Below, one piece after another: positions 5,568 to 26,818 of a DNA stretch of 35,258 nt (position 1 is the first letter of the stretch; every line of letters begins with the position of its first letter). The translations under genes and the position numbers were made by a program. Below the pieces are notes generated by a model. The model ran no database searches and was not told where the DNA came from. It saw only the letters and a program-made list of their open reading frames with translations. The DNA lies in IMG/VR virus record IMGVR_UViG_3300045988_142641; one strand, written 5' to 3'. This stretch comes from a virus. Lineage: Duplodnaviria > Heunggongvirae > Uroviricota > Caudoviricetes.

Positions 5568-6758
5568 TTAATTGCTGTTAACCGAAGTGACCAGATTTGC
5601 CAGGTATTTATCGGTAATACGCTGGCGCAGGGTCAGGTTTTCAAGAGGAGGCACCGGTGTATAGTCGTAGTCGATATACAGTTTTCCGGCCTTGAGGGTT
5701 TCCGCATCGTTGGATTCTTCGCTGAACCAGCAGGTCGCATCCACGATATAGCCGTTTGTTTTCAGCTCACGGAATTTGGCATTGATGCCGTCAACGATGT
5801 CGCGAATCAGCGTTGCGGTGATGGGCTTGTCCACCGCCCACATGTGCGCCTCAGCCATCGTGTCGGCCAGCACCTGCGCGGTGCGGGTGTAGTTTTCAAA
5901 GAGGAACAGCGGGTCATCAGAGCAGGTACGGTTACCCCAGAAGCGGAAACCGTCGCGGCGAATCAGCGTTGTGACGCCTGACTCGTTAAGCAAGTCAGCA
6001 TCGGTGCCGGACTCCTGCAAATCCCAGAATACAGAGGCGCTGATGCCGGTAACACCGTTCACCCCGACATTGGACAGCGTTTTATGCCAGCCCTGCTCCT
6101 GGTCAATTCTGGCACGCAGACCCAGCGCACGGGCGGTGGCATACGCGGTGGCGGTAGTACTGGTGACCGTATCCCATGCGAGGAAATCCGGCCAGATGAC
6201 CATCAGCTCACGCTGGCTGAAATTCTGACGGTAGGCTTTCACCTCGGAAATGGTTTTACAGCCCCATGCGCTGATATACCCGAAAGCGCGCAGCTTCTGA
6301 CAGACGGATGCCAGTGCAACAGCCACCTCTTTGGTATCCAGTCCCGGCACACCGAGAATACGCGGTTTAACACCGGTTACCGACTCCGCCGCCAGCAGTG
6401 CTTTTAGTCCGGTGTACTGACCGTTTTCGTCGGTGGTGCCGATGATATTGGAAACGGTCTGCGCGAGTTTCGTTTCCTCGTCGTCGCCGGCGCCGTCTTC
6501 CACACGCACGACAACGGTGACCGGTTTTGACTGGTCAGCGATGGCCTGCAACGATGCCGCCAGCGTGCCTTTTTTACCGGCCTTTGCAATTGCGCTCTGC
6601 ACATTGGTAATCAGCACCGGTTTATTGAGGGGGAAGGTTTCCGCATCCGCATCGCTGGCCGTGCAGACCATGCCGACAATGGCAGTGGATACGGTGGAAA
6701 TGACACGGGTGCCGTCGTTAATCTCCAGCACCTGCACGCCGTGATGATAGTCACTCAT
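5568..6758 (-). CDS. FI: tail sheath protein FI (396 aa)
   Basis: 396-aa ORF; first gene of the FI-FII-E-T-U-D tail operon; size equals P2 FI. Confidence 0.9.
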   Translation of the reverse strand: MSDYHHGVQVLEINDGTRVISTVSTAIVGMVCTASDADAETFPLNKPVLITNVQSAIAKAGKKGTLAASLQAIADQSKPVTVVVRVEDGAGDDEETKLAQTVSNIIGTTDENGQYTGLKALLAAESVTGVKPRILGVPGLDTKEVAVALASVCQKLRAFGYISAWGCKTISEVKAYRQNFSQRELMVIWPDFLAWDTVTSTTATAYATARALGLRARIDQEQGWHKTLSNVGVNGVTGISASVFWDLQESGTDADLLNESGVTTLIRRDGFRFWGNRTCSDDPLFLFENYTRTAQVLADTMAEAHMWAVDKPITATLIRDIVDGINAKFRELKTNGYIVDATCWFSEESNDAETLKAGKLYIDYDYTPVPPLENLTLRQRITDKYLANLVTSVNSN

Positions 6759-6944: not shown

Positions 6945-7017
6945 CTGACAGTCTGCTTTGAGCGAATAACGGACATTGGGAACAGCATTCTGTGTGAATC
7001 AAGGGGGAGCAGGTCAC
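6945..7017. repeat. island-1 boundary repeat R1 (about 82% identical to 9914-9986)
   Basis: Shared blocks aacggacatt, aacagcattctgtgtgaatca and gggagcaggtca in the same order and spacing as in R2. Confidence 0.7.
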
Positions 7018-7285
7018 TGACTATGAACACCTCATCATTGACATGAAGCAACAATTTTCAATGCTTGGTATGTACAACATTTTCATGTCATCCTCATTGA
7101 TGTAGAATCGTCTATGATTTTTGCTTACGTGAAATATATGGAAATTCTCAGGTTGAATGTTAATGAAATAAACCATCTAAAGATTTTCAAATGCAACTTG
7201 AACTGTTATTGGTGTGCACACTGAATTCTAATTAAATATATGGGTATTGAGTAAAATATAAAACATTGATTAATAAGGAGCGTAT

Positions 7286-8155
7286 ATGATTTTTGATGAT
7301 ATTGATGGTTATTACGATTATCGGGAACTTCAATCCATTGCTGATGAAAAAAGAGTGCTGAATAAAGTCAATGCTTTTCGTCAGGAATTCACCGCTCTTG
7401 CTAGAGAATGGTCTCCTGAACGTAATTCTCAATGGATTTGCCGTATCTATTTCTGTACTAAAATGATTCTAAATGCAACTGTCGTTCTAAAACAGGCTGA
7501 ATTCGCCGAAGAAAAAAACCTGAGGGCAGCCATTCCTTACTTTCACTATTATGCTATGCTCTCAATCTTACGTTGTGTGGTCCTAACTTTGCCGACTGAA
7601 GACTGGGATAATGAGGATATTCTGAGTATCTCTCATAAAAAAGCGAGAGACAAAACCAGAGAATGGTTGGCTCGATATGATAGAGCACTGGCCACACGAT
7701 TTGATGATTTCTTCCTGACCCTTAAATCAAACAGAGAATTACTATCATATAAGGCGCCTGCCAGTGCAGACCGAAACATTAGCAACCAAGATGAGGTAAT
7801 ATATTTCTGTACTTTACTAGCAGAAGTCGCGCAATTTAACACGGCTATATTGCATAACGCTGTTGTTAGACACGCATCAGAGGATGATTTCGTTGTGTTC
7901 GATCATGACATGGCCCGCATTTATAACGTTGAGATTGAAGGGAAACGTTTCTATGATAGCGAGGACAGATATCGTCTGGATTATCTGAGACGAAAAGGCA
8001 ATATTCCTCACAGCATTCACATGACCATGACAGAGGGGCAGACTGAAGATTTCATTGGTGCCTGGGATGCTCATGACGATGATGTCGATAACGAAGAAAG
8101 CCGTTTTTACTCTGGCTCACCTTCATCATGGCAGGACATATTCGATATTCCCTGA
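7286..8155 (+). CDS. hypothetical protein (289 aa), AT-rich cargo gene
   Basis: Strong SD (aaggag, 5-nt spacer, ATG); AT-rich codon usage unlike the phage backbone; acidic C-terminus; no motif I recognise. Confidence 0.65.
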   Translation: MIFDDIDGYYDYRELQSIADEKRVLNKVNAFRQEFTALAREWSPERNSQWICRIYFCTKMILNATVVLKQAEFAEEKNLRAAIPYFHYYAMLSILRCVVLTLPTEDWDNEDILSISHKKARDKTREWLARYDRALATRFDDFFLTLKSNRELLSYKAPASADRNISNQDEVIYFCTLLAEVAQFNTAILHNAVVRHASEDDFVVFDHDMARIYNVEIEGKRFYDSEDRYRLDYLRRKGNIPHSIHMTMTEGQTEDFIGAWDAHDDDVDNEESRFYSGSPSSWQDIFDIP

Positions 8156-8274
8156 ATCATAAAAATAATTGCCAATCAATAAAACACCATACCTTTTCAA
8201 TTTTAATGGTGTAATCAGGTCGATAACCCCCTTGATGTGACCGGCTACCCGTTATCAACACTAAGTGCTGTTCG

Positions 8275-8610
8275 CTACTTCCGTTTTAGGCACAGGGCTG
8301 CTATTGCAGCCCTGACAACCTTAGACTCAATCGATTCAGAGATCTCTAACGCATCATCTACTTCAATGCCCAGATAACGGACCGTGCTTTCCAGTTTCTT
8401 ATGGCCTAACAGAAATTGGATCACTCGTAGATTCTTGGTTTTCTTGTAGATGAGGCAAGGTTTTGTTCTTCTCATGGAATGTGTGCTGTAAAGCGAATCT
8501 TCGAGACCAAGCTTTTCTACCCACCCATGAAAGATTCGGTTGTATTGCCGGGTTGATATGTGCCGATTAGTTCCGATCCGAGATCGGAACAAGAAGTCTT
8601 TACTATGCAA
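8275..8610 (-). pseudogene. tyrosine recombinase/integrase C-terminal remnant (111 aa)
   Basis: Contains HSMRRT (HxxR), LLGH and a downstream Y in RYLG, i.e. the C-terminal catalytic motifs of a tyrosine recombinase, but lacks the N-terminal half and box I Arg. The upstream space is occupied by the 3' end of the 379-aa ORF. Confidence 0.6.
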
Positions 8611-8616
8611 ATTAAA

Positions 8617-8634
8617 AGGCTGTATACACAGCCT
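8617..8634 (-). terminator. hairpin downstream of the 379-aa ORF
   Basis: aggctgt-atac-acagcct (7-bp stem), followed on the minus strand by tttaatttg. Confidence 0.4.
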
Positions 8635-8645
8635 GTTAATTTATG

Positions 8646-25461: not shown

Positions 25462-25603
25462 ACACCCCGCCATCACGCCCTCACACGCTCACCACCGCAC
25501 AAAACAGCCCGCATACACACCAACGCCCCGGCGAACAATCTAAACGCCATCACAACGCGCTCAGACGCTGAAAAAATAAAATCAGCACCACCGCCAGCGC
25601 GCA

Positions 25604-25622
25604 GTGCTTTCCCCGCCTCGCC
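25604..25622 (-). other. cos: cos site (19-nt cohesive end)
   Basis: The reverse complement of 25604-25622 is GGCGAGGCGGGGAAAGCAC, which I recall as the P2 19-nt cohesive-end sequence; position between Q and the A-side cargo is as in P2. Confidence 0.8.
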
Positions 25623-25665
25623 CGCCCGCTTCATGGGTCGATTTTAATGCAGTTGTATTTAATGG

Positions 25666-25694
25666 AAAAAGCCCTCCAGGACTGGAGGGCTTTT
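25666..25694. terminator. bidirectional intrinsic terminator downstream of the kinase operon
   Basis: aaaaa-gccctcca-ggac-tggagggc-tttt: an 8-bp GC stem flanked by an A-run and a T-run, so it can terminate on either strand. Confidence 0.65.
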
Positions 25695-25750
25695 CTATTA
25701 GAGTTCGTAAAATGCTCATGCAAATTCACGCGTTATGCTGCAAAAAACAA

Positions 25751-26818
25751 TCATTTCTTAGCTTTCACAACCGGATGCGCGCGATCATGTCCACCGCCAC
25801 GATGCTTAGAAAATATAACCTTTTCATTAGTAAAAGGTTTTTGGCCATAGACACTATCATAGTGGAAAAAGACGTTCGGAAGATGAGGCACACGGATGAA
25901 TCCATACTTCACTCTAGTATCACCGATGACCCCAAAAACCCTTGTACTTACTGGGTAGCATAGTTCACCACAACGCATCACTAATTCATCTGCTGTTGGG
26001 CGTTCAGAAGGTTCCAATTTTAAACAATCTTCTATAAGTTTAATTATTTCATTTGCCAATGGCGCATACTGTCTATTTGAAAATATAAAGTCAGGGTAAG
26101 GAACATGCGTGCCAGAAAGTATATTTGGTATAGCCATATAACCAATACCAAAAGGGTATTTTCCAGTAAGAATCCTGAACATCATCGCACCCAATGCCCA
26201 AATATCTGTAGGTTTCGAAACCTTACCTTGACTCTGTATGATTTCCGGTGCCATATATGGCAAAGCCCCGATAGCCGTTTGCGAAGAACTAATTGAATCT
26301 TGACCATTTCTTGCAGCCTCATCAATTTCATCTCCGGCCATCTTTGAAATGCCGAAATCCGTAATTTTTATCTCTGTAGCATTGATACCACCGCCTACCA
26401 TTATATTTGAAGGTTTGAGGTCCCGGTGTATGACGTCAACATGATGCGAAGCAGACAGAGCTTTAGCTAAATTATGAAATATTTTAGCAGTTAAATATGG
26501 ATCAACACTTGAATAAGTGTCTAAAATAGCCTTATCCAAGTCAACTCCATCAATAAATTCCTCCGTTAAAAACTCTCTACCCTCATCATCAATGAAGTAA
26601 TCTAAGGTTTTAGCCACATTAGGATGATTAACTCTTGATGCTAATATTGCACTTCTATGAAACCTTTTTTCAGCAGATTTATTTTTGGGAGTTTTGAGAG
26701 CCACATGCCTCGAGAGAATATTATCCATTGCCAAATAAACTTTTTGCATACCGCCTTCACCAATCTCCCTCAATATTGTATATCTGCTAACTTGAATGCC
26801 TGGAGTCAGATTTATCAT
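25751..26818 (-). CDS. Hanks-type Ser/Thr protein kinase (355 aa), cargo
   Basis: G-loop GEGGMQKV, VALK lysine, catalytic loop HRDLKPSN, DFG, APE and DIWALG all present; SD GGAGG 7 nt upstream; ATGA overlap with the upstream kinase; ~60-aa C-terminal extension. Confidence 0.85.
   Translation of the reverse strand: MINLTPGIQVSRYTILREIGEGGMQKVYLAMDNILSRHVALKTPKNKSAEKRFHRSAILASRVNHPNVAKTLDYFIDDEGREFLTEEFIDGVDLDKAILDTYSSVDPYLTAKIFHNLAKALSASHHVDVIHRDLKPSNIMVGGGINATEIKITDFGISKMAGDEIDEAARNGQDSISSSQTAIGALPYMAPEIIQSQGKVSKPTDIWALGAMMFRILTGKYPFGIGYMAIPNILSGTHVPYPDFIFSNRQYAPLANEIIKLIEDCLKLEPSERPTADELVMRCGELCYPVSTRVFGVIGDTRVKYGFIRVPHLPNVFFHYDSVYGQKPFTNEKVIFSKHRGGGHDRAHPVVKAKK

Follow-up and report, generated by a model that had tools for sequence, protein, structure and literature searches.

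The stretch of DNA analyzed here (the window, 35,258 nucleotides) is the IMG/VR virus record IMGVR_UViG_3300045988_142641, assigned to Caudoviricetes, and it is a P2 (Peduovirus) prophage: its tail sheath protein FI is 99.5% identical to those of P2-type coliphages, and it carries the usual tail, baseplate, lysis, capsid, portal and gpA genes. An island of low guanine plus cytosine (GC) content (positions 7001-11000, 34-43% GC) separates FI from the tail-fibre assembly gene G and is flanked by phage genes of ~51-61% GC. The island contains the gene under study, a 289-codon coding sequence (CDS) on the plus strand (7286-8155, with the ATG at 7286 and the TGA at 8153-8155), whose product belongs to an unnamed HEPN-like family of ~285 residues. 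Reading the sequence upstream gives the Shine-Dalgarno element AAGGAG (7275-7280, plus strand), separated from the ATG by the five-nucleotide spacer CGTAT, and the gene diverges from the sheath gene FI (5568-6758, minus strand), so that both the canonical ribosome-binding site and the transcription away from the tail genes are as an earlier note, made from the sequence alone, had described them. The encoded protein has an isoelectric point (pI) of 4.94, with nine Asp or Glu residues against one Lys or Arg in residues 261-289, and its C-terminal sequence reads DAHDDDVDNEESRFYSGSPSSWQDIFDIP, exactly the peptide that the note had quoted as Asp/Glu-rich. In P2 itself the G-FI slot is that of Z/fun; the note had named homology to a Z/fun-like protein as a finding that would speak against it, and we found the product unrelated to the 299-residue CDS of this slot in Peduovirus P2 OU784549 (BLASTP, E 0.91, no homology).

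The gene had been taken for an orphan, a description that does not hold. A word-indexed search returned 137 homologues, and an exhaustive search of 1.84 billion cluster representatives with a hidden Markov model (HMM) recovered 354 family clusters, counted at 50% identity, at E <= 1e-3 (154 of them at E <= 1e-30); the family is a conserved hypothetical one, named by no source bar one UniRef label. At the DNA level, similarity to the ~70%-identical genes of Morganella, Serratia, Klebsiella and Pantoea is confined to the borders of the open reading frame (ORF; 7286-8151), and the ratio of nonsynonymous to synonymous substitution rates (dN/dS) is 0.12 against a 98% copy; against more distant copies dN is ~0.2 and dS is saturated. 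Given the 137 homologues, the 354 clusters, the similarity that ends at the ORF borders and the dN/dS of 0.12, this is a real gene under selection rather than a chance ORF. It is probably expressed, in keeping with the note's expectation, and the translation start is kept in homologues. The only upstream features common to the gene and its ~70%-identical homologues are an AGGA-type ribosome-binding site and the ATG, and promoter and terminator scans gave a result no better than shuffles.

An AlphaFold2 model of the protein, computed from an alignment of 55 sequences, is confident (predicted local distance difference test, pLDDT, 91; predicted template modelling score 0.91), with helices at residues 21-40, 44-76, 83-100, 117-129, 133-156 and 171-196. 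The last five of these make up a HEPN-like helical core (residues ~44-196; 7415-7873, plus strand), an up-down bundle that in the predicted fold has HEPN topology. Structure prediction followed by Foldseek had been proposed in the earlier note; Foldseek gave no significant match in PDB or BFVD, and its agreement was weak, with 2hsb as the best match (prob 0.95, E 0.14). Further HEPN entries in the fold comparison were, in order, TT1696, SsR10, ST0689, the HepT toxin, the sacsin HEPN and HI0074. Nothing beyond the HEPN core found a counterpart in the structural comparisons, and no known mimic proteins were matched.

Among 111 family representatives sharing <= 50% identity, the most conserved residues are R53 (100%), Y88 (99%), Y89 (96%), R96 (96%), H117 (95%), R150 (99%), E151 (94%), S154 (96%), Y155 (99%) and P158 (98%). 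Three sets of the conserved positions fall on recognizable elements of AF0298-type HEPN domains. The pair Y88-Y89 (7547-7552, plus strand) aligns with 'AYYAMF'; H117 (7634-7636, plus strand) is an 'alternative' His carried by the insert that separates core helices 2 and 3, and aligns with the H of 'KTH'; and R150-E151-L-L-S154-Y155 (7733-7750, plus strand), where the penultimate core helix ends, stands at the site of the Rx4-6H motif, has Tyr in the position of the His, and aligns with 'REESDY'. A profile-profile alignment (hhalign) between 110 family members and AF0298-like PF05168 proteins gave a probability of 74% and an E-value of 2.7e-5 over 63 columns; in it Y88Y89 lies opposite YY, H117 opposite H and R150..Y155 opposite R..Y. 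Only the 110-sequence alignment made this comparison informative; runs that used the narrow alignment A1, or that were set against single sequences, were not significant. Taken together, the predicted fold and the profile alignment show a protein of HEPN fold, with a core that is probably of divergent AF0298/PF05168 ('HEPN-T') type.

The absence of a catalytic motif asserted in the earlier note is therefore correct for the canonical Rx4-6H, which is lacking, and incorrect for the strongly conserved set of YY, H and R-E-x-x-S-Y residues. In AF0298-like HEPN-T proteins and in AbiV the motif Arg persists where helix 3 ends and the motif His is lost, an alternative His being supplied from the helix-2/3 insert, and the authors of that classification suggest an alternative active site (Anantharaman et al. 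2013, PMC3710099). Although the canonical motif is absent here as well, the arrangement fits the AF0298-like HEPN-T/AbiV group, because the same combination of Arg and insert His is found. Sites of HEPN proteins are usually built across the two subunits of a dimer.

Compared with the AF0298/UPF0332 HEPN domains (PF05168), the protein shares the YY of helix 2, the His in the helix-2/3 insert and the R-x4-Y at the end of helix 3, in the same order, as well as the loss of the canonical motif His. PF05168 proteins differ in being ~125 residues long and typically paired or fused with an MNT nucleotidyltransferase, whereas the present family reaches ~285 residues, lacks an MNT partner, and has an extra N-terminal helix and C-terminal modules. 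The Pfam HMM is blind to this family; PF05168 was unmatched in hmmscan searches with our protein and with 55 relatives. For these relatives, scans of Pfam, NCBIfam, PHROGs and PADLOC returned nothing meaningful, PADLOC-DB v2 gave 0 families at E <= 0.1 for the protein itself, and profile searches of PDB sequences yielded noise only. We consider that the family probably descended from AF0298-type HEPN domains. As a side observation, two 2026 PDB entries for an AF0298-like 'HEPN domain-containing protein', 9xbd and 9xbc, differ at the R-x4-Y motif (RNRSDY vs RNRSDF); this Tyr-to-Phe pair suggests that someone is testing that tyrosine.

Family members are nearly all 270-320 residues long and share a single architecture. 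They come from Gamma-, Beta- and Alphaproteobacteria, Bacteroidota, Verrucomicrobiota, Firmicutes, Acidobacteriota, Gemmatimonadota and other groups, with 68 family loci in a scan of 185,579 species (one genome per species), a rare yet phylogenetically scattered spread, as mobile cargo typically shows. The 90% cluster to which the protein belongs comprises E. coli, Salmonella, Proteus/Morganellaceae, Citrobacter, Serratia, Cronobacter, Kosakonia and Enterobacter. The identical protein is recorded from draft assemblies of E. coli and other Enterobacterales, and the exact gene occupies the same P2 slot in many assemblies; there were 0 occurrences in 5,426 complete RefSeq E. coli genomes, and tblastn against 50,697 phage records found no match (an INPHARED count of 0).

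To describe the settings in which the family occurs, the neighbours of ~75 dereplicated loci were compared. Homologues lie in the gpA-gpQ hotspot of a Serratia P2-like prophage, with a SIR2 gene adjoining; in a Morganella lambdoid prophage, following the integrase and opposite an SMC-like ATPase; in a Klebsiella island that also carries the CbtA/CbeA toxin-antitoxin, RadC and anti-restriction genes, where an AAA_21 pair and YaaC flank the gene; at the end of a Ralstonia P2-like prophage; and in a decayed Pantoea P2-like prophage. On plasmids of Acinetobacter, Rhizobium and Sphingobium they are found near toxin-antitoxin modules, an ABC-three-component system and type I restriction-modification, and in Bacteroidales the loci adjoin genes for type IV secretion coupling proteins. 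The 129 nearest neighbours include matches to models of Lamassu, Thoeris/SIR2, PARIS, AbiL, Hachiman, Septu, PD-Lambda-2, type IV restriction and AbiE, as well as to resolvases, integrases and gpA, with no model matched in more than three loci. No neighbour family occurs in more than five of the ~75 loci and none holds a fixed position, so the co-occurrence with neighbouring ORFs that the earlier note had suggested examining yielded no conserved partner. Nucleotidyltransferase families are likewise missing from the recurrent neighbours of these loci; a single gene with such a domain, in the Rhizobium locus L002, lies ~0.7 kb upstream, next to a pentapeptide-repeat gene. ORFs of ~180 residues, downstream on the same strand, were considered as a recurrent partner and rejected, as they are mutually unrelated. 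The lack of a recurring neighbour, together with surroundings of defence and mobility genes, indicates that the gene is a self-contained unit, and these loci show it to be horizontally mobile solo cargo of defence hotspots.

The reading that we favour, to which we give about an even chance, is that the protein is a solo HEPN effector of abortive infection or other anti-phage activity. By analogy, we infer an RNase activity, auto-inhibition, a phage trigger and a defence phenotype. In such a scheme the protein would be made constitutively from its own promoter and would be inactive in uninfected cells, possibly because its C-terminal module or its oligomeric state restrains it. On infection a phage component would activate it, whereupon RNA would be cut or sequestered through the R150/H117/Y155 site and translation would be halted, leaving the lysogen population and its prophage protected from competing phages. 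If this is correct, the gene would be an unlisted single-gene anti-phage system on P2 prophages of E. coli, Salmonella, Proteus, Serratia and relatives, with the same system on mobile elements across many phyla. It would also provide an experimentally tractable member for the AF0298/PF05168 branch of HEPN domains, which is poorly understood, lacks the canonical His and for which we found no reported catalytic activity, and at 870 bp it is a compact candidate with clear point mutants.

Several points weigh against a defensive RNase. The defence function is a prediction, and the evidence from defence neighbourhoods is descriptive. The end of core helix 3 lacks Rx4-6H, reading R150-E-L-L-S-Y155-K-A-P with no His at +5 to +7, and the closeness in space of R150, H117 and Y155 is deduced rather than observed. 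The acidic pI of the whole protein (4.9) is unusual for an RNA-binding enzyme. Models of Pfam, NCBIfam, annotated PHROGs and PADLOC gave no meaningful match to the protein, and the family is rare in phage collections (INPHARED 0, IMG/VR 5). Moreover, PF05168-type HEPN domains are not known to be nucleases: Class II HEPN/MNT systems have been described only as being without RX4HXY. Lactococcal AbiV has RNHKSKH (RX5H), which this protein lacks.

AbiV is otherwise similar in being a small HEPN-only defence protein, grouped with the AF0298-like proteins through the alternative His (PMC3710099), and it has been shown experimentally to be an rRNase that degrades ribosomal RNA and stops translation. 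It requires an upstream RNA antitoxin (abiV2), whereas none is evident for our gene from repeats, leader conservation or folding, and the AbiV models of PADLOC and Pfam left the protein unmatched at E <= 0.1. HepS of the Gifsy-1 prophage similarly is a single-gene HEPN protein in a prophage accessory slot with no conserved partner; it rests as an oligomer, is activated by a phage tail-tip protein and then cleaves transfer RNA at the anticodon (PMC13043305). At ~218 residues, HepS has a canonical R100-x4-H105 and is without the C-terminal domain and tail seen here, and no sequence similarity between the two proteins was detectable. The accessory genes of P2 (that of the G-FI slot, and old and tin in gpA-gpQ) resemble our gene in being low-GC cargo that varies while the slots are fixed, and several of these genes exclude other phages; the P2 G-FI slot gene lies on the opposite strand and, as noted above, is unrelated in sequence.

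An AbiU2-type HEPN assignment, the UniRef label carried by a 90% relative, was considered and rejected. It could not be reproduced, HEPN_AbiU2 of Pfam giving no match to the protein at E <= 0.1, and AbiU2 is absent among the 25 Pfam families listed for 55 relatives; furthermore, AbiU2 keeps Rx4-6H, which the present protein is without.

By sequence comparison, then, the protein is not a member of AbiV, AbiU2 or HepS. We class the family as a previously unnamed addition to the HEPN-based conflict proteins, and as a plausible, testable candidate rather than a surprise; if it acts as proposed, it would join HepS and AbiV as a further solo HEPN effector, one whose regulatory module is built into its C-terminus.

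The alternative that survives best, although we regard it as unlikely, is that this is a non-catalytic protein of HEPN fold, an RNA- or nucleotide-binding regulator, adaptor or sensor, for which a role in conflict or as a prophage accessory would still be possible. The missing motif His, with Tyr in its place, and the overall acidity of the protein are what such a protein might look like. The conservation at R53, Y88, Y89, R96, H117, R150, E151, S154 and Y155, of ~94% or more, looks instead like that of an active site rather than a scaffold, holding as it does across phyla at 21-48% pairwise identity (one 72% relative aside), and the alternative-His arrangement has been proposed to be catalytic (PMC3710099).

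Rather improbable, to our judgment, is that the protein is a toxin with an unrecognized antitoxin, whether a small RNA or micro-ORF in the ~270-nucleotide leader (compare AbiV/abiV2 and AbiF) or a host factor. AbiV provides the precedent, having long been considered a solo HEPN protein and yet requiring an upstream non-coding RNA, and the leader of our gene is long (7017-7285) and contains an upstream ORF of 36 codons whose start region is an 85% copy, over 20 nucleotides, of the gene's own Shine-Dalgarno and start (7104-7123 vs 7276-7295). Against this, the 20-nucleotide duplicate is borderline for chance by a rough estimate, the leader has no tandem repeats, folds no better than shuffles (z +0.47) and has no Rfam match, and in ~70%-identical homologues the upstream sequence is not conserved past the ribosome-binding site; nor is there a conserved protein partner. 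An RNA that is unstructured or evolves fast may escape these comparisons. We note in addition that the 20-nucleotide copy stands 172 nucleotides upstream of the Shine-Dalgarno and start of the gene, and that the upstream ORF likewise begins MIF.

The region beyond the helical core offers another way in which a toxic activity might be held in check. Residues 206-260 (7901-8065, plus strand) are predicted to form a family-specific alpha/beta unit, a beta-hairpin (214-223) plus helices, at a pLDDT of 92-95, with D224, D227, R230, G251, D255 and W260 as its conserved residues. It is followed by the acidic linker DAHDDDVDNEESR (residues 261-273; 8066-8104, plus strand; pLDDT ~71), whose length varies in the family, and by a conserved hydrophobic tip (8105-8152, plus strand), the last ten residues of which have a pLDDT of ~94. 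The tip follows the pattern [FY][ND]PD..W..[IL][IL]F[DP]xP in the family and reads FYSGSPSSWQDIFDIP in the subfamily of our protein. The Asp/Glu-rich C-terminus reported in the earlier note extends to the family, in which 105 of 110 sequences have a tail of net negative charge (median -5). That the tip is modelled at high pLDDT suggests docking on the folded body, and an acidic segment placed between the folded unit and a docked tip would be a tether rather than a nucleic-acid-like surface. The run of an acidic stretch into D-I-P is reminiscent of the C-terminal tip of SSB, a likeness that we set aside because the final residue differs and the tip is predicted to be docked.

One speculative possibility, which we hold to be a long shot, is that the C-terminal module is an in-cis 'antitoxin' that closes an AF0298-type site (R150 and H117, with Y155 for the His) until a phage protein binds or strips the tail and frees the activity. 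The tethered hydrophobic tip, invariant as W-x-[IL]-[IL]-F-D-x-P, would then be both gate and sensor. A self-gated solo HEPN immune protein of this kind would be the one-polypeptide equivalent of a toxin-antitoxin pair, and it would give the extended PF05168-type HEPN proteins their first functional assignment.

Two observations on the family touch this region. A divergent, mostly alphaproteobacterial subgroup (L002, L003, L062, L070, L076, L077, L080 and L082) matches only as far as residue ~265-268, and it seems either to lack the acidic linker and tip or to have other versions of them. Three of its loci (L003, L077 and L080) have a common upstream ORF, of 308 residues in L003 and 339 in L080 and present as an 81-residue fragment in L077; the full-length copies in L003 and L080 have no Pfam match. 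In addition, the 150 best-scoring of the 354 clusters include a single fusion, the metagenomic P0177 (798 residues), in which the family domain spans residues 520-798; its N-terminal 514 residues have no Pfam match and, by eye, contain a PD-(D/E)xK-like segment, 'CDVFVEEENLLIEAKA'.

Returning to the island itself, the gene is part of a 3.0-kb cargo module delimited by blastn (6951-9942), which also holds a recombinase remnant and a 379-residue gene, and of which copies 98-99% identical are present in a non-P2 chromosomal island (L017) and in Serratia sp. Ag1 (L020). The remnant (8275-8610, minus strand, 111 codons) is the C-terminal part of a tyrosine recombinase (Pfam Phage_integrase, E 1.2e-11, profile positions 92-166 of 172) and is annotated as a partial integrase in E. 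coli SF-468. The convergent neighbour of our gene (8646-9785, minus strand) matches PHROG 12525, of unknown function (E 7e-139), has no Pfam and no PADLOC match, is widespread in E. coli prophages, and may be uncharacterized cargo or a defence gene itself. In E. coli, the remnant and the 379-residue gene have other left neighbours, namely a DUF4365 gene in SF-468 and a 417-residue hypothetical gene in a P2-like prophage of ES5; these different left-hand genes indicate that the slot next to the remnant is variable.

We therefore also weighed a two-gene system, in which our gene would act with the convergent 379-residue gene and the 3-kb module would move as one, and find it very doubtful. Its appeal lies in the co-inheritance of the gene, the integrase remnant and the 379-residue gene at 98-99% in the P2 hotspot, L017 and L020. 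However, no homologue at <= 75% identity has a relative of the 379-residue gene nearby, the latter and the remnant stand beside the DUF4365 gene and the 417-residue protein gene in E. coli, and the two genes are convergent with a recombinase pseudogene between them.

Least probable of all is an anti-defence protein whose acidic C-terminus would imitate DNA or RNA, as the earlier note had proposed, or bait a host protein: family members keep the acidic tail, the whole protein has a pI of 4.9 and anti-restriction genes accompany some loci on conjugative or integrative elements, but the acidic stretch turned out to be a short, variable, low-confidence linker of ~13-20 residues between the folded domain and the hydrophobic tip, most of the protein consists of a HEPN bundle conserved in the manner of an enzyme, the neighbours are mostly defence genes rather than anti-defence clusters, and no known mimic protein is matched in structure.

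The cargo module is bordered by a 57-nucleotide direct repeat, with the left copy at its left edge (6960-7016, plus strand) and the right copy at 9929-9985 (plus strand), inside which, at 9942, the homology with L017 ends. The repeat has two matches in the window against 0 expected in shuffles, and it may be a site of cassette swapping or recombination, or a shared promoter. Both copies are situated in divergent intergenic regions, each upstream of a plus-strand cargo gene (that of 289 residues and one of 314 residues); the L017 homology begins at the left copy, and a further copy precedes a homologue of the 314-residue gene in a lambdoid prophage of E. coli IPCEC31 (L088 8701-8721). How cargo is swapped in the hotspots of P2 and P4 is still to be elucidated (2026 study, PMC13586616), and the 3-kb module, with its 57-nucleotide repeats and recombinase remnant, may bear on this question.

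The 314-residue gene (10112-11056, plus strand) is the third cargo gene of the island. It has a weak N-terminal GIY-YIG-like match (Pfam E 0.017), a TIGR01453 match at E 0.027 and weak PADLOC matches to PDC-S14 and UzuA, and a 99%-identical copy is found in E. coli lambdoid prophages.

The gpA-gpQ slot has been described as an accessory and defence hotspot of P2-like phages (PMC9122126), and so has the position of our gene, within the tail genes, where 16% of P2 defence systems are found (PMC13586616); in the hotspots of P4 satellites, studied alongside those of P2, six of eight tested loci of unknown function gave defence (PMC13586616). The window has a second low-GC island, at ~25500-29200 (34-39% GC), between the portal gene gpQ and gpA. 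Within this gpQ-gpA hotspot, the segment 25751-29038 (minus strand) encodes two Ser/Thr kinases (Pkinase E 6e-45 and 2e-42, with PADLOC mad6 and PD-T4-6 matches) and then a PP2C-like phosphatase (E 5e-6), which, judged from these matches, look like a kinase/phosphatase cassette of defence type.

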